From assembly GCF_988243305.1 (NCBI RefSeq), contig NZ_OZ547136.1: 64,000 bases of DNA; one strand, written 5' to 3'. Shown piece after piece: positions 6,465-64,000 of the stretch. The translations under genes and the position numbers were made by a program. Within the stretch, counting starts at the first letter, position 1; every line of letters begins with the position of its first letter. The notes beneath the pieces were generated by a model. The model worked only from the letters and a program-made list of their open reading frames with translations. It made no database searches and was not told the DNA's origin.

Positions 6465-7640
<1,176 letters not shown>

Positions 7641-7820
7641 TCAGAATTAACTTAACTGTGAATCATGATGTTTTTAGCATCCTGATAAGAGCTAAAAGTT
7701 TTAACGCTACGTTGTTCGATGGTCAACGCAACGAAAAACAATTCAGATTTTCTTTATAAGAATAGCTGATATTTATTAAGTTAATATTAAGCAGTGAAAT
7801 TTAGTCTATAAGATAATTGG

Positions 7821-7852
7821 CAAAAAAAAGCCCGGTGCAATATACGCCGGGC
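7821..7852 (-). terminator. rho-independent terminator downstream of gnd
   Basis: inverted repeat gcccggtg...cgccgggc followed on the minus strand by an 8-nt T-run. Confidence 0.7.
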
Positions 7853-7879
7853 CTCAATTTTATTGTTGGTTAAATCAGA

Positions 7880-58105: not shown

Positions 58106-59458
58106 GTGTTTATTGGTTTTGATTACGGTACAGCAAACTGTTCAGTGGCGGTCATGCGCGACGGTAAACCGCATTTGCTAAAAATGGAAAACGACAGCAC
58201 GCTGCTGCCTTCAATGCTTTGCGCGCCAACGCGTGAAGCGGTAAGCGAATGGCTGTACCGCCATCATGATGTTCCGGCAGACGACGATGAAACGCAGGCG
58301 CTGCTGCGTCGGGCGATTCGTTATAACCGCGAAGAAGATATCGATGTTACGGCGAAAAGCGTGCAGTTCGGTCTTTCCTCACTGGCACAGTACATTGATG
58401 ATCCAGAAGAAGTGTGGTTTGTGAAATCACCAAAATCGTTCCTCGGTGCCAGCGGCTTAAAACCGCAGCAGGTAGCGCTGTTTGAGGATCTGGTCTGCGC
58501 AATGATGTTGCACATTCGCCAGCAGGCGCAGGCACAGCTGCCAGAAGCGATTACTCAGGCGGTGATTGGTCGCCCTATCAACTTCCAGGGGCTGGGCGGC
58601 GATGAAGCAAACACCCAGGCGCAGGGGATTCTGGAACGCGCGGCGAAGCGTGCCGGGTTTAAGGATGTGGTATTCCAGTACGAGCCGGTCGCGGCTGGGC
58701 TGGATTACGAAGCCACCTTGCAGGAAGAAAAACGGGTGCTGGTGGTGGATATCGGCGGTGGTACGACTGACTGTTCATTGCTGCTGATGGGGCCGCAGTG
58801 GCGTTCGCGTCTCGATCGTGAAGCCAGCCTGCTGGGTCACAGTGGTTGCCGTATTGGCGGTAACGATCTGGATATCGCACTGGCGTTTAAAAACCTGATG
58901 CCGTTACTGGGCATGGGTGGCGAAACCGAAAAAGGCATCGCCCTGCCGATTCTGCCGTGGTGGAATGCGGTTGCCATCAACGACGTACCTGCGCAAAGTG
59001 ATTTCTACAGTAGTGCCAACGGTCGTCTGCTTAACGATCTGGTACGCGATGCCCGCGAACCGGAAAAAGTGGCCCTGTTACAGAAAGTCTGGCGTCAGCG
59101 TTTAAGCTATCGCCTGGTACGTAGCGCAGAAGAGAGCAAAATTGCGCTTTCAAGCGTAGCGGAAACCCGCGCCTCACTGCCGTTTATCAGCGATGAACTG
59201 GCTACGCTGATTAGCCAGCAAGGGCTGGAAAGCGCCCTCAACCAGCCACTGATGCGGATTCTGGAACAGGTGCAACTGGCGCTGGATAACGCCCAGGAAA
59301 AACCGGATGTCATCTACCTGACCGGCGGTAGCGCCCGTTCGCCGCTGATTAAAAAAGCGCTGGCAGAACAGTTGCCGGGCATTCCGATTGCAGGCGGCGA
59401 TGACTTTGGCTCCGTCACCGCCGGGCTGGCACGCTGGGCGGAGGTGGTGTTTCGTTAA
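58106..59458 (+). CDS. yegD: Hsp70/actin-fold ATPase family protein
   Basis: ORF 58043-59458 begins at TTG; likely true start is GTG at 58106 (MFIGFDYGTANCSVAV), giving 450 aa; DYGT and DIGGGTTD motifs. Confidence 0.85.
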   Translation: MFIGFDYGTANCSVAVMRDGKPHLLKMENDSTLLPSMLCAPTREAVSEWLYRHHDVPADDDETQALLRRAIRYNREEDIDVTAKSVQFGLSSLAQYIDDPEEVWFVKSPKSFLGASGLKPQQVALFEDLVCAMMLHIRQQAQAQLPEAITQAVIGRPINFQGLGGDEANTQAQGILERAAKRAGFKDVVFQYEPVAAGLDYEATLQEEKRVLVVDIGGGTTDCSLLLMGPQWRSRLDREASLLGHSGCRIGGNDLDIALAFKNLMPLLGMGGETEKGIALPILPWWNAVAINDVPAQSDFYSSANGRLLNDLVRDAREPEKVALLQKVWRQRLSYRLVRSAEESKIALSSVAETRASLPFISDELATLISQQGLESALNQPLMRILEQVQLALDNAQEKPDVIYLTGGSARSPLIKKALAEQLPGIPIAGGDDFGSVTAGLARWAEVVFR

Positions 59459-59470
59459 TTGAAAACTGGC

Positions 59471-61417
59471 TCAGCAACGGCTTAAATCAGCCTGCGCCTG
59501 AGCCAGTTTTTCTGCCGCCTGACGTAACGGTTCCATCAACGGCATGGTCCGTGCTGGAGCATGAAGGCGGAATCGCTGCAACTCTGTCGCACCGACAGTC
59601 AGCGCCGATTCCAGCCGATGTCGTTTGGCGGCCATTTTTGCCATTACCGCTTGTCTGTCTGCAGGCGTTACCGCTTCGTTCGGCCTGAAAACAAAACGGC
59701 GTTCGCAACTCGCTTTCCAGTCGATAACCGCCTGGGTCAGATGATCACCAAAACCTTTTACTTGCTTAACGCTCCGTCGGGTAACGTCTGCCGCCGTTTC
59801 AATACCAAAGGACCGTAACGCCGCTTTACGCGCAGGGCCAACGCCGGGAATAGAGGCAACATCAATAAAAAATCCCTCCAGAAACTTCTGCTTCTGCCGT
59901 TCCCTTGCGGTGTCCTGAAGTGCTGCCAGATCGCGCTTTTCTTCTTCCGGTAACCCAAGAATTTCGTCCTTCATTTTTTCGAGCATCGTCCGTTTGGCGA
60001 TAAAACCTTCCAGCCCGCCCAACCGTTGGATCTGGCTGACTAAATGGTCATAGTCCATTTTCGCGCGATTAAACGCCTCACGGCGTTGCTGGATTTCTGC
60101 TTTGTACGCTTTGCTTGTCAGGCTGCCAATAATCCAGATAGCCGCCAGCACAGGAACCAAAATAATATAACGCGGTTCTGCCTGAAGGCCGCAAAGCAAC
60201 AGCGATAACGCTGACAGTGCGATCTCAATCAGAATGATGTATTCGCGCCGTAACAGGCCTAAAGGAAGCGGCCTGCCAGTCAGTTGGAAATGATCGGGTA
60301 ATGGCAGTTGCAATGCTGGCGGTGCTACTGACGCCATCACCATCGCCCAGACTTTCGCCAGCACAAAATCACCGCTGGTGGTAATGACCTCTTCGCCGAG
60401 ATCAATAAAATAGATAACGCCTTGATTATCCAGCGCACACCACGGGCAGTCAGTCAAATGACCGGGGTAAACATGCATTGCCGAAACGGTACATTTCTTT
60501 AACTGTTGGCGTAGTAAATCAAGTGCCGCAACCCACGCTTTTGCCGTCGGACGCCCGGTTGCCACGCCACTTTCCGTGAATGCCTGCTGAAACATGGTTT
60601 CAACATCGCCCGGTAACATCGACAGCGGAATAGATCGTGGCGGCGGTTTTAAACCACGTCGCTGATTATCTGACGCGTAGGCATAACGGAAATGGGCAAT
60701 ATCCGTCTCCAGTGCATTACCCGCATCAGAGACAAGCGGTACACCGGAATAAGGATGCCGCCCACCAAACAAGACGTGAAAAATCAGCAACGCAAGGCCA
60801 AAATTATCGTGATTCGCGGTGCGTTCAAAGCCGACAAATGATGGCAAGGTTTGCAGCTCTGGCGGCGTAAAATGCGACACGCCGACTTCGCATAAATGCA
60901 GCGTGCCATTGGCGTTAATCTGAAAGGAGTCGCTATCAATCAACACCACTTTGCTGTCACGGCCTACCATAAAGCTGTTCTGGTTTACGTCACCCACGAC
61001 ATGCCCGTGCTCGTGAACCGTAGCAAAAGATGAAGCAATATTGCGCGCAACATAGAGTAGAAAATCCCACGCACAATGAGGGTAACGTTGGCGACGATGT
61101 GCCGGGCTATAGATCATATGAATCGGTTCTTTACCAGAAACTTTTGGCATCATAAAACCGATAACCTTTCCGCCTCGTCCACCGTGAAGCGTTGCCTGCG
61201 GCCAGGCGACATAATTCAACAATTGCGCGTCAGCTGTCGCAGCCATAAAGGCAAGTTTGTCCTGTTTTAAGGCGGGTGGCGGCGTGTGATAAATCTTGGC
61301 GACACTATCGACAAACTCCTCGATATCATAAACCGCGCCTTCGCCACCTTTTCCCAGTTCACGCCCGAGAGTGGTCAATTCACCTGTCGATGTAAATACT
61401 TTTATATTTGTCTTCAT
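59471..61417 (-). CDS. yegI: eukaryotic-like Ser/Thr protein kinase family membrane protein
   Basis: 648 aa ORF; N-terminal glycine-rich loop LGKGGEGAVY followed by VAKIY lysine motif; central hydrophobic segments; C-terminal extension. Confidence 0.85.
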   Translation of the reverse strand: MKTNIKVFTSTGELTTLGRELGKGGEGAVYDIEEFVDSVAKIYHTPPPALKQDKLAFMAATADAQLLNYVAWPQATLHGGRGGKVIGFMMPKVSGKEPIHMIYSPAHRRQRYPHCAWDFLLYVARNIASSFATVHEHGHVVGDVNQNSFMVGRDSKVVLIDSDSFQINANGTLHLCEVGVSHFTPPELQTLPSFVGFERTANHDNFGLALLIFHVLFGGRHPYSGVPLVSDAGNALETDIAHFRYAYASDNQRRGLKPPPRSIPLSMLPGDVETMFQQAFTESGVATGRPTAKAWVAALDLLRQQLKKCTVSAMHVYPGHLTDCPWCALDNQGVIYFIDLGEEVITTSGDFVLAKVWAMVMASVAPPALQLPLPDHFQLTGRPLPLGLLRREYIILIEIALSALSLLLCGLQAEPRYIILVPVLAAIWIIGSLTSKAYKAEIQQRREAFNRAKMDYDHLVSQIQRLGGLEGFIAKRTMLEKMKDEILGLPEEEKRDLAALQDTARERQKQKFLEGFFIDVASIPGVGPARKAALRSFGIETAADVTRRSVKQVKGFGDHLTQAVIDWKASCERRFVFRPNEAVTPADRQAVMAKMAAKRHRLESALTVGATELQRFRLHAPARTMPLMEPLRQAAEKLAQAQADLSRC

Positions 61418-61617
61418 AATGTTTTAAGGGCAGTCATATTATATTTTAATGAATAATAACACTGCCCATTATAATTATTTCCATATTGGAAGAGTCCCAC
61501 TCAAGAATAAAAATGATAATGCAATTTCATCAGGATACAATTCAATTCCAACCTGATAATGATTCACTTCCACAGATTTTTTGCTAACTTTTACTACACA
61601 GGGATTCTGGAAAAAAG

Positions 61618-62079
61618 ATGAAAAAGATATTACTTATGTTGAGTCTGCTATTTTTTACTACCGCGGGCTTTAGTGAAGTTTCGGATACGTTAGTGACGGG
61701 AGGTTATGATAAACAAGCGATGTCTGACGCCATTCAACATGCGCGGAAAGAAACCGATCAATTCATCGAAATTATGAATAAAAAAGATGCCGATACTTTC
61801 GCGGTCAAAGCCCCGATAACCGATCACGGAAGAACAGAGCATTTCTGGCTTACGGATGTCACTTATTCTAACGGCATGTTTATTGGCGTAATAAGCAATG
61901 ACCCTGGTATTGTTACAAACGTAGAATATGGTCAGGAGTGGAAAATCAAGAAAGAAGATATTTCAGACTGGATGTATACGCGCGGGGATAAAATTTACGG
62001 CGGTTATACCATTGATCCTTTATTAGTCACCTATCCAAAAGAAGAAGCCGACGAGCTAAGAGCAAAATTAGTTCGCTAA
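61618..62079 (+). CDS. yegJ: secreted protein of unknown function
   Basis: 153 aa ORF with N-terminal signal peptide (MKKILLMLSLLFFTTAGFS); AT-rich. Confidence 0.8.
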   Translation: MKKILLMLSLLFFTTAGFSEVSDTLVTGGYDKQAMSDAIQHARKETDQFIEIMNKKDADTFAVKAPITDHGRTEHFWLTDVTYSNGMFIGVISNDPGIVTNVEYGQEWKIKKEDISDWMYTRGDKIYGGYTIDPLLVTYPKEEADELRAKLVR

Positions 62080-62143
62080 CCAGCCATTATATTGATTGCT
62101 TAAACTGGCGGTTGAACTGTTGTCTTCAACCGCCATGCGATGT

Positions 62144-62905
62144 TCATTCTGTCCACAGCGCCAGTGCCAACGTTTTATCATCATCCGTACGCTCGTTTAC
62201 CGCCGGGCTGGACAAAAACTGCTTTAACAATTCAGGTAATAAATCGAGTTGTTCCTGCGTTGCTGACGCCAGTCCATTGAAAAACGGGGTAAAAAAAGGC
62301 ACATGCGGAGAATTATTCAACATATTTAACGCCAGCCTCTGAATACCATCCGTAAATGCTGCAACTTTATGCGCACGCTCAGTACTGGTGTAAGTTTCCA
62401 GTCTGGAAACAGCATCGTCATCGGTAATGAAGTGCGTCATGTTGGCATATTCACCCACCATCGGCGTGAGAGGCAATTGCAGACCGTGACCCAAATCTAC
62501 CACCATGCCGCCATCGCCAATCTGCATAATCAAGGTGCCGTCAGGCGATGAAATCAGTCCCAGAAATGTACAGGCAAAATCGCGAACCGCTAATTCTTTG
62601 GCCTCTGCCTCGGCAAAAAGTCGCTGACGAATGGTCAGCACAATATCCGTGGCGAGGACATCATTAAGCCCCAATTCCCCACCCTGCACTTTTTGCGACA
62701 TATAAGCCATCGCTTCATTGACGGCGAGCATCGCGCCTTCGCCACCCTGCGAGACGCTGCCTGCGCCATCAGCGACAAATACCGACAATAATGGCTGCTG
62801 GTCATTTAACCAGGCAACCTGCATCTGGCAGGCATCCTGGCAAGGCAAGTCCGCGCTGATGTGCGACGTTCCAACGGTTGATGCATAGACCAGACGCCAG
62901 CTCAC
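62144..62905 (-). CDS. yegK: PP2C-family protein phosphatase
   Basis: 253 aa ORF; acidic metal-binding motifs (VADGAGS, DGG); 4-bp overlap with yegL. Confidence 0.82.
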
Positions 62906-63561
62906 ACTGACGTCCAGCCTTTTGGCGCTTCCAGCACAACTTCCGTTCCCGGCGTGGAGCGGGAAACCGAACGCAGCGAACTGGATAACCAGCTAAACAG
63001 TTCACGGAATTGTAATCCCTGCAGTGGCAAAGGCTGACGAACGCTGATTTGTGCCAAAGTCTTCATATCCGCCCCCTGAACACCGATGGAAAAGAAGGCA
63101 AACTTCTTATCTTCTTCCCCCTGAAACACTTTGTTGGCGGCAGCCTGCCACTCATCGGTTGGAGCGCCATCGGTGATCAGGAAAATCCACGGGCGATAAT
63201 AGGAAATACCATTGGCGCGATACTCACGTTTGCGCTCCTCAACCATATCCAGGGCTTTGGTAATGGCGGCCCCCATTGGTGTATCGCCCTGGGCAAACAG
63301 GATGGGCGGGAAAAAATTAGCGGCGCTGGTAAAGGGTTGTTCCACATGCACCGGGCCGAACGTCACAATACCGAGTTCCACTCTTTTTAAGGCCAGCGGA
63401 TCGGCAAGCAGTTCATCGCGAAAGGTAACCAATCCGGCGTTAAGTTCATTAATAGGTCTACCACTCATCGAACCAGAAACATCCAACAGCAAAATGCAGG
63501 GGCAACGTGGTTCCGGGTTACTGGCAAAATCGCTGGTGGCAAACGTGATTTGTTCGCTCAT
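62902..63561 (-). CDS. yegL: von Willebrand factor A domain protein
   Basis: 219 aa ORF with MIDAS-like motif LLLDVSGSM. Confidence 0.82.
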
Positions 63562-63739
63562 AAGAAATCCTTTCTTAGAGAATTATTGAGGTCCGGTATC
63601 ATACCGATTGCAATAATGAAATAAGAGCAAACGAAGAAACTTTCAGAATTAGGCCCGGCGGCGCAGAAAATTTTGCTATTCGCCTCGCAAGAACGGAGAG
63701 CCGTCGATTGACACTAAGGGCGGAGTGACATAATTTCAG

Positions 63740-63885
63740 GAGTGAGGGTTAGGGAGAGGTTTCTCCCTCCCCCTGGTGTTCTTAGTAAGCCTGGAAGCTA
63801 ATCACTAAGAGTATCTCCAGTATGATGACGTGCTTCATCATAACCCTTTCCTTATTAAAAGCCCTCTTCTCCGGGAGAGGGTTTC
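63740..63885 (+). ncRNA. Sib-family antisense RNA (antitoxin of Ibs), boundaries approximate
   Basis: plus-strand region fully overlapping the minus-strand Ibs ORF, ending at a hairpin plus T-tract; locus position after yegL matches the recalled sib/ibs location; 5' end not determinable from sequence. Confidence 0.5.
63782..63841 (-). CDS. Ibs-family type I toxin, 19 aa hydrophobic peptide
   Basis: hand translation of the minus strand gives MMKHVIILEILLVISFQAY followed by a stop; not in the ORF track because it is below the length cutoff. Confidence 0.65.
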   Translation of the reverse strand: MMKHVIILEILLVISFQAY

Positions 63886-63890
63886 CCGTT
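63861..63890 (+). terminator. rho-independent terminator, probably of the Sib RNA
   Basis: hairpin ccctcttctccgggagaggg followed by tttcccgtttc. Confidence 0.6.
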
Positions 63891-64000
63891 TCAGCGTCCC
63901 GCTGAAATCGTCGGCTTACCTCCTTTCGCCCTGAATGCAGTCTATCGCTAACGCGTGAACAAAATAGTTTCCTCTGTGATTATTGCGTAACGACTCGCAA

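Follow-up and report, generated by a model that had tools for sequence, protein, structure and literature searches.

TerY-phosphorylation (TerY-P) triads consist of a TerY-like vWA protein, a PP2C phosphatase and a Ser/Thr kinase (PMC11090510). They are a class from comparative genomics (Anantharaman, Iyer and Aravind 2012) and, as summarised in PMC11090510, were first proposed as a metal-sensing phospho-switch tied to tellurite resistance. A stand-alone TerY-P system protects against T7-like phages and has a kinase with an OB fold (Gao et al. 2020, as described in PMC11090510 and PMC7699616), and the TerY-P kinases associated with CoCoNuT systems carry a C-terminal zinc ribbon (PMC11090510). 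Both kinds of kinase C-terminus are credited with nucleic-acid binding (PMC11090510). The genes compared with these systems here are yegL, pphC (yegK) and yegI of Escherichia coli, encoding a vWA protein, a PP2C phosphatase and an atypical kinase, respectively. They are found in a stretch of 64,000 nucleotides (NCBI RefSeq assembly GCF_988243305.1, contig NZ_OZ547136.1), which is referred to as the window in the following. The window is E. coli chromosome: its positions 59000-64000 are matched in 5417 of the 5426 complete E. coli genomes (megablast), and hundreds of E. coli assemblies encode exactly these window proteins. An earlier note, made from the sequence of the window alone, had pointed to the combination of kinase, PP2C and vWA as resembling proposed conflict systems, a likeness for which the TerY-P triad is the precedent (PMC11090510).

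By architecture, yegL-pphC-yegI is a TerY-P triad, but one that stands outside the validated family and belongs to a distinct, larger branch. The scan for relatives, with one genome per species, returned 136 relatives of which 78 loci were kept, and all open reading frames (ORFs) of these loci were searched with the five E. coli proteins YegL, YegK, YegI, YegD and YegJ. The loci are spread over about ten phyla and include Beta-, Gamma-, Alpha- and Deltaproteobacteria, Paenibacillus, an actinobacterium, Chlorobiaceae, Melainabacteria, Verrucomicrobia, Flavobacteriales, Planctomycetes and methanogenic archaea. At every locus with enough upstream DNA, the homologues of YegL, YegK and YegI abut in that order on one strand; the co-occurrence of the three genes, proposed by the earlier note as a check, is thereby observed. 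The junctions are mostly 4-bp overlaps or gaps of less than 10 bp in the nine neighbourhoods inspected. The flanks are unrelated between loci, and clustering of all flanking ORFs yielded no fourth cassette gene common to more than 6 of 75 loci. YegD accompanies the triad in Escherichia alone, and YegJ in no more than a part of E. coli; with neither beside the triad outside Escherichia, both were rejected as a fourth component.

The family is large and crosses wide taxonomic distances. Full-length relatives of YegI with ~60% identity are present in Klebsiella, Piscinibacter and Chromobacterium, and a HMMER search of 1.8 billion representatives gave 3224 YegI-family clusters (50% identity) at E<=1e-30. 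Relatives of YegI are furthermore carried on 83 plasmid records, 46 of them conjugative; nine of the records are from E. coli, several of these being chromosome-sized. The complete triad was verified on pQBR103, the single plasmid inspected. Taken together, vWA, PP2C and kinase, in this order, form a strict, self-contained and horizontally mobile cassette.

Phage records were considered as a source of the cassette as well. A phage-borne origin was rejected, as no full-length relative is present in 50,697 phage records and one partial match of 27% identity was all that was obtained. This match lies at 6859-7860 of MT836238.1, an unannotated human-gut 'Bacteriophage sp.', and covers YegI residues 11-332, i.e. 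the kinase domain (E 4e-18). Three PHROGs families of unknown function (phrog_37888, phrog_37072 and phrog_28389) match E. coli YegI, PphC and YegL near-perfectly, for example with 1508 bits over 642 residues. Because the genes are found in no INPHARED phage record, these families probably derive from host DNA within a prophage or phage record.

The surroundings of the cassette were inspected at nine non-Escherichia loci, for which the genes within 10 kb were annotated with Pfam. Clear defence clusters are present in seven of them. In Pseudomonas alcaligenes, Gabija lies directly upstream and CBASS (Cap15 and a CD-NTase) downstream, and in Pseudomonas sp. GV071 type I restriction-modification (RM) and McrBC genes are found directly upstream. 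The actinobacterium Georgenia has McrBC, Paenibacillus has two Mrr nucleases, PIN_12 and SLFN_AlbA_2, and Klebsiella has GmrSD, type I RM, SymE and BrnA. AbiH, a KAP NTPase and Tn7-like genes surround the cassette in Chromobacterium, and a SLFN-type helicase, MazG-like, ScoMcrA, SNase, BrxR and JetB are its neighbours in Piscinibacter. The remaining two neighbourhoods contain a HicA toxin and a DNA methylase only (Chromatium) or a NYN/OST-HTH gene only (Brevundimonas). The cassette is located downstream of the McrB/McrC pair in two genera, directly and co-directionally in Pseudomonas and ~2.4 kb away in Georgenia. This placement is reminiscent of the TerY-P triads that have been described inside CoCoNuT-type McrBC systems, although the kinase family differs.

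As the cassette travels as a unit and usually lies near anti-virus genes, it is a probable relative of a known anti-phage system. With moderate confidence, yegL-pphC-yegI is therefore read as a TerY-P-class mobile three-gene phosphorylation switch, most likely a conflict or anti-phage sensing module; genomic context and architecture are what suggest the defence role.

Table 1. Features of the yegL-pphC-yegI region, in positions of the window (aa, amino acids)
Feature	Position	Strand	Description	Source
yegI	59471-61417	-	648 aa	ORF list
yegJ	61618-62079	+	153 aa; DUF2314 (Pfam E 3e-25)	ORF list
pphC (yegK)	62144-62905	-	253 aa, GTG start; PP2C_2	ORF list
yegL	62902-63561	-	219 aa; VWA; first gene of the cassette	ORF list
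YegI kinase domain, residues 1-305	60503..61417	-	Gly loop 22-27, K41, VGD143xxN145, D161-S-D163-S164	
YegI Cys/His cluster, residues 309-327	60437..60493	-	C309, H315, C324-P-W-C327; directly after the kinase domain	
YegI membrane hairpin, residues ~391-437	60107..60247	-	two hydrophobic helices	
YegI coiled-coil stalk, residues 438-648	59474..60106	-	antiparallel, long	
YegI helix-hairpin-helix module at stalk tip, residues ~517-575	59693-59869	-	Pfam HHH_5	
AT-rich replacement segment	61364..62152		789 bp, 37.9% GC	alignment vs yegJ-less genome
Perfect 10-bp inverted repeat	62107-62134		between convergent yegJ and pphC	

In the window, the positions that the earlier note had given for yegI, yegJ, yegK and yegL match the ORF list exactly (Table 1), and RefSeq has the same four genes in near-identical E. 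coli genomes. The gene order annotated by RefSeq in a near-identical E. coli genome is dgcE, alkA, yegD, yegI, yegJ, pphC, yegL, ibs/sib and mdtABC. The 4-bp overlap of yegL and yegK described in the note was read directly as GTGA on the minus strand, formed by the yegL stop and the pphC start. Likewise, each of the quoted motifs was located in the window proteins, LGKGGEGAVY at residues 21-30 and VAKIY at residues 39-43 of YegI, and DVSGSM at residues 27-32 of YegL. Next to the cassette, yegD (58106-59458) converges with yegI, and their ends are 12 bp apart. For yegD, the mechanical ORF list places the start at TTG 58043 (471 aa) and RefSeq at 58106 (450 aa); the NCBIfam model matches residues 22-471, consistent with the RefSeq start. 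On the other side, a Sib antitoxin RNA (Rfam RF00113, 145.9 bits) is located at 63708-63856 on the plus strand, directly upstream of yegL and opposite an ibs toxin gene. Between yegL and mdtA, genomes differ in how many ibs/sib repeats they have, with 2-4 annotated copies in the fetched loci.

YegI is a real but atypical kinase rather than a canonical Hanks kinase. The earlier note had assigned it a Hanks-type kinase N-terminus, of which the kinase assignment stands (by profile, model and published activity) and the canonical Hanks assignment does not. The HRD and DFG motifs are absent and replaced by the family-invariant V-G-D143-x-x-N145 and D161-S-D163; this loss has also been described by others (10.1101/819920). 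Of the Pfam domains named in the note, PP2C and VWA are found in PphC and YegL, but Pkinase gives no match to the window YegI at E<=10. The sole Pfam match of YegI is HHH_5 over residues 517-553 (E 7.6e-4, or E 1.5e-4 on the isolated region). Among 25 more distant members of the family, 20 match Pkinase at E<=0.001, and a profile of 30 family members compared with the PDB finds the kinases TTK (E 1.5e-6) and PknE (E 2e-3). An AlphaFold model of YegI (mean pLDDT 86.4, pTM 0.73) contains a bilobal kinase fold, and Foldseek places PknB of M. tuberculosis at the top, together with PknA and Aurora B (E ~1e-7, TM up to 0.72 on the target). All of 30 homologues, with identities down to 32%, retain G22, G24, G25, E26, G27, K41, D143, N145, D161, D163 and S164.

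The activity of YegI and PphC has been studied by Rajagopalan and Dworkin (10.1101/819920, 10.1101/303594). YegI shows Mn-preferring autophosphorylation that is abolished in K39D and D141N (REL606 numbering), needs the DSD loop, follows second-order kinetics and takes place on activation-loop serines (10.1101/819920). The family profile, the Pkinase matches of distant members, the superposition of the model and the published autophosphorylation are the grounds on which YegI is regarded as a real, though atypical, kinase. The statement in the earlier note that the activities have been shown and that role and substrate are unknown agrees with this literature (10.1101/303594, 10.1101/819920).

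The part of YegI that follows the kinase domain has several elements. The family shows no variation at C309, H315, C324, W326 and C327, and the Cys/His cluster that they form is a probable zinc knuckle or ribbon, as judged from its sequence. PhoA-LacZ fusions define YegI as a two-pass inner-membrane protein with both ends in the cytoplasm (10.1101/819920). Kyte-Doolittle peaks are found at residues 391-396 and 415-419, with model helices at 391-410 and from 417 onwards; the sequence of this hairpin is poorly kept in the family and its hydrophobicity is kept. The order in the model is kinase, Cys/His knuckle, low-confidence linker, two hydrophobic helices, a very long helix pointing away from the membrane, a helix-hairpin-helix (HHH) unit and returning helices. 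A separate AlphaFold model of residues 434-648, built with 58 sequences (pLDDT 96.4), gave the same antiparallel stalk with a tip domain. HHH_5 is detected in 32 of 58 YegI relatives at E<=0.1, and the motif around S536-D544 and G555-F556 within the HHH module is invariant. In addition, a Topoisomerase-I-type C4 zinc ribbon (Zn_ribbon_Top1) is present in the stalk region of 12 of the 58 relatives, and longer relatives have added SH3 or TPR modules.

The two partner proteins are assigned as the earlier note had them, PphC as a PP2C-like phosphatase and YegL as a vWA protein with a MIDAS motif. PphC matches Pfam PP2C_2 with E 1.7e-52 over residues 11-220, and its metal-binding aspartates D24, D46, D131, D186 and D241-243 are invariant in 33 homologues. 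It is a Mn-dependent PP2C phosphatase that dephosphorylates YegI (10.1101/303594). YegL is a stand-alone vWA protein (Pfam VWA E 1.6e-9) with a complete MIDAS (D27-x-S29-x-S31, T94 and D131) that is invariant in 35 homologues from many phyla. The same 35 homologues share an invariant Ser-rich C-terminal tail, W-L-S-x-S-x4-S-x-S (W191, L192, S193, S195, S200 and S202). Of the three proteins, YegL shows the highest conservation, with a mean column identity of 67% and 55-85% identity to the E. coli protein across phyla, Firmicutes and archaea included, whereas the phosphatase homologues are 30-65% identical to E. coli PphC. Such conservation is unusual among vWA domains and suggests several simultaneous binding constraints on YegL.

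A mechanism can be proposed from these elements. According to the model, YegI would be held at the membrane by its helical hairpin and project a coiled-coil stalk with the HHH module at its tip. Binding of nucleic acid at the tip, either entering phage DNA or damaged DNA, would lead to dimerisation and trans-autophosphorylation of YegI. PphC would keep YegI off in unstimulated cells and reset it afterwards. YegL may be the partner or substrate, via its MIDAS and Ser-rich tail, and could translate the phospho-signal into damage to DNA or growth. A harmful output of this kind would fit with the higher level of endogenous DNA damage in cells that overproduce YegL or YegI (10.1101/354589) and with the slower growth of cells that overexpress YegI (PMC6116040). 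In the window allele, the switch would be uncoupled by the insertion of yegJ. The more specific proposal that YegI is a membrane-anchored nucleic-acid sensor, whose HHH tip on a ~10-nm stalk under the inner membrane detects entering or broken DNA, with YegL as phosphorylated effector or adaptor and PphC as reset, is considered distinctly unlikely as it stands.

The yegJ insertion itself can be traced by alignment with a yegJ-less genome, in which 53 bp are found in place of the 789 bp in the window, and yegL, pphC and yegI are consecutive with 4-bp overlaps at both junctions. The segment also supplies a new start of yegI (the first ~18 codons) and a new end of pphC (the last ~3 codons). It is present in 1896-1924 of the 5426 complete E. 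coli genomes (35%), the remaining genomes (65%) having the contiguous operon, and it was absent from all sampled loci outside E. coli, including those of other Escherichia species. Published papers describe yegI directly after pphC in B strains and yegJ between them in K-12, and the yegJ form is that of K-12 MG1655. With the segment in 35% of complete genomes, the published restriction of yegJ to K strains (PMC13232886) is drawn too narrowly. The contiguous operon is ancestral and the window allele is derived and uncoupled, because the segment is foreign in GC content (37.9%, compared to 51-52% in the three cassette genes) and absent from the other Escherichia sampled, and relatives of YegJ are stand-alone genes in unrelated bacteria. 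The earlier note was right in finding the kinase, PP2C and vWA genes around yegJ, but yegJ is a lineage-specific insertion and not a spacer inside one system. By parting yegI from yegL-pphC, the insertion ends their translational coupling and leaves yegI without an obvious ribosome-binding site or a consensus promoter: a consensus scan of the minus strand upstream of yegI in the window allele found no sigma-70-like promoter, which is a weak negative and not proof of silence.

Some further observations concern YegJ and its segment. The N-terminus of YegJ (MKKILLMLSLLFFTTAGFSEV) is signal-peptide-like and has a strong hydrophobic peak. A paper of 2026 reports that YegJ ranked first among the two-hybrid partners of the catalytic domain of RNase E, which is cytoplasmic, and that the envelope becomes leaky when YegJ is overexpressed. 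Secretion of YegJ would fit the envelope damage, yet would be odd with a cytoplasmic RNase E interaction. Compared with the window, the segment is >=99% identical in 99 genomes, 95-99% identical in 497 and 90-95% identical (~94.4%) in 1327. K-12 derivatives are in the 90-95% class, and the divergence is far above that of the flanking genes. The two diverged allele classes suggest an old polymorphism or separate imports.

Several points weigh against a conflict or anti-phage role of the triad. The defence context comes from a small sample of nine loci with no matched control, and the E. coli flanks (yegD, alkA and dgcE; ibs/sib; mdtABC) are non-defence genes. With 5414 of 5426 complete genomes carrying it, the locus is practically part of the E. 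coli core genome, and its synteny is kept in other Escherichia species, which is unusual for defence. PADLOC models miss the window proteins: YegL reaches no more than E 0.013, with TerY, YegK matches no model, and YegI matches generic kinase models only; NCBIfam has no family above cut-off for them, and scans with PADLOC, NCBIfam and PHROGs returned no functional family for YegL or YegK. Fold searches with the C-terminal model of YegI gave generic coiled coils only, and it is a weak Pfam match together with motif conservation that would suggest DNA binding by the HHH tip. Two groups detected no expression under standard conditions (10.1101/303594, PMC13232886), and K-12 MG1655, which has the split allele, is a phage-sensitive host in defence assays. 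Finally, the searched literature, which did not cover Anantharaman et al. 2012, contained no link of yegI to phage defence, a stress phenotype or TerY-P.

The core status and stable synteny of the locus in Escherichia speak for an endogenous stress switch, in which the proteins would sense DNA damage, metal or envelope stress and reversibly phosphorylate host proteins, the E. coli copy having been domesticated. Purifying selection within Escherichia points in the same direction, with dN/dS of 0.07-0.17 for yegI, 0.08-0.17 for pphC and 0.02-0.10 for yegL, values that include comparisons between yegJ-bearing alleles and from which it follows that the cassette genes are maintained by selection. 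This explanation would also accommodate the increased DNA damage upon overproduction (10.1101/354589), the metal-sensing, tellurite-linked function originally proposed for TerY-P (as summarised in PMC11090510) and the two of nine neighbourhoods, those of Chromatium and Brevundimonas, with weak hints only. However, the patchy spread across phyla, the ~60% identity between distant classes and the plasmid carriage are those of an accessory, selfish or conflict-type element, and no conserved host partner gene lies nearby. In addition, no ter genes or Ter-family Pfam domains are found in the nine inspected neighbourhoods or the E. coli flanks, and the lack of expression in the laboratory conditions tried (10.1101/303594, PMC13232886) speaks against a stress switch too. 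An endogenous role of this kind is rated as rather unlikely. As a side observation, dS of the three cassette genes in E. coli is ~0.05-0.19, about double the value of 0.04-0.08 that the same genome pairs give for yegD next to them, which hints at elevated diversity or recombination at the cassette.

The absence of detectable transcription (10.1101/303594, PMC13232886) would fit if the E. coli locus were a silenced relic, acquired once, transcriptionally dead and decaying, with the yegJ insertion as one decay step. The operon is split in 35% of genomes, and individual genomes have an IS4 in the locus, an IS1 between pphC and yegI, or a frameshifted yegI in a contiguous-type operon (disruption loci: E. 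coli H1 (NZ_CP095083.1), L002 3248-3945, L004 1852-3794). Many truncated YegI clusters (400-570 aa) are found in a large protein collection, and yegI has been repeatedly mutated in long-term evolution lines (as cited in 10.1101/303594). Nevertheless, this reading is very unlikely, as dN/dS is 0.02-0.17 in all three genes, also between two yegJ-bearing alleles, the catalytic residues are all intact in the window copy, the locus is kept in 5414 of 5426 genomes, and the recombinant E. coli proteins are active (10.1101/303594, 10.1101/819920). A five-gene module, with yegJ as regulator or effector and/or yegD as Hsp70-like partner, is highly improbable: the genes are physically adjacent, and moderate yegJ overexpression strongly induces yegD while strong overexpression damages the membrane (PMC13232886), but neither gene is beside the triad in the other ~70 loci, the yegJ segment has a foreign base composition, YegJ relatives stand alone, and YegJ probably acts outside the cytoplasm because its N-terminus is signal-peptide-like.

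Earlier publications cover the genes, the activities of both enzymes, the polymorphism of yegJ and the concept of the triad. New are the strict conservation of the cassette across phyla and plasmids, its defence-island company, the negative membership test against the validated TerY-P system, the frequency and boundaries of the operon split and a structural picture, as predicted, of a membrane-tethered kinase with an HHH-tipped stalk. To our knowledge, YegI and PphC are the only known eukaryotic-type Ser/Thr kinase and PP2C pair in E. coli. Together with YegL, they are now assigned to a mobile family of more than 3000 clusters (50% identity), which resembles a validated anti-phage system in architecture and neighbourhood but is invisible to current defence-finding tools. 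Both K-12 and the window strain carry the split operon, and the split may explain earlier failures to see expression or a phenotype. If the conflict or anti-phage reading of the cassette is true, the known immune systems would gain a near-universal locus that would sit silent in almost every E. coli, including K-12, and a kinase that is tethered to the membrane and senses DNA would amount to a new principle of sensing in bacterial immunity.

Among known systems, the Hanks-type bacterial kinase-phosphatase pairs PknB/PstP and PrkC/PrpC resemble YegI and PphC in the kinase fold, with PknB being the best structural match, in activation-loop autophosphorylation and in a co-encoded PP2C that dephosphorylates the kinase. 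In contrast to these pairs, YegI has no extracellular sensor (no PASTA domains) and has both termini in the cytoplasm, it has substitutions at HRD, DFG and three further canonical residues, it is always encoded with a vWA partner, and the spread is patchy and mobile instead of lineage-wide. PD-T4-6 and Stk2 (Staphylococcus) are single-gene Ser/Thr kinases in phage defence. Of the PADLOC models, that of PD-T4-6 matches YegI best (E 1.2e-4, residues 19-240), with a weak match that covers the kinase core only, and unlike YegI neither kinase has a phosphatase or vWA partner, a membrane region or an HHH region. The triads embedded in type II/III-A CoCoNuT McrBC systems differ from yegL-pphC-yegI in that no CoCoNuT helicase or HEPN genes are found in the inspected neighbourhoods and the cassette stands alone. 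Points of likeness with the TerY-P class are the invariant Cys/His cluster that follows the kinase domain throughout the YegI family and the position of some members downstream of McrBC, directly so in Pseudomonas.

The closest comparison is that with the validated stand-alone TerY-P system, which was recovered from the first 399 bases given in a supplementary table and located in E. coli G3/10 (locus L087, 6200-9459), beside type I RM genes. It is rare, with 5 of the 5426 complete E. coli genomes having it, whereas yegL-pphC-yegI is nearly universal. The sizes of its vWA protein, phosphatase and kinase are 277, 239 and 561 aa, compared to 219, 253 and 648 aa for YegL, PphC and YegI. Homology of all three window proteins to this system could not be demonstrated with hhalign. 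The vWA proteins are related at E 0.006 in BLASTP (29% identity over 112 aa; hhalign 88.8%) and the kinases at E 0.033 (hhalign 35.6%, with the alignment extending from P-loop to alphaF), and the phosphatases show no BLASTP similarity (hhalign 0.1%). RefSeq keeps the two apart in name, with 'TerY-P anti-phage system ...' for the validated system and YegI, PphC and vWA protein for the genes described here. The TerY-P kinase is soluble and has an OB-fold end, while YegI has the probable zinc knuckle, membrane hairpin and predicted coiled-coil stalk with HHH tip described above. Nevertheless, both systems share gene order and strand, from a vWA protein with MIDAS via PP2C to a Ser/Thr kinase with short gaps, and the TerY-P genes as well as homologues of the cassette are found beside restriction-modification genes. 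In the two kinases, HRD and DFG have given way to xGD...N and LIDxD, and each carries a C-terminal extension, credited with nucleic-acid binding in TerY-P kinases (PMC11090510) and a candidate for it in YegI. It is because the gene order is alike, while the sequence relation is very remote and the existing models fail, that yegL-pphC-yegI is assigned a TerY-P-like architecture and a family of its own.

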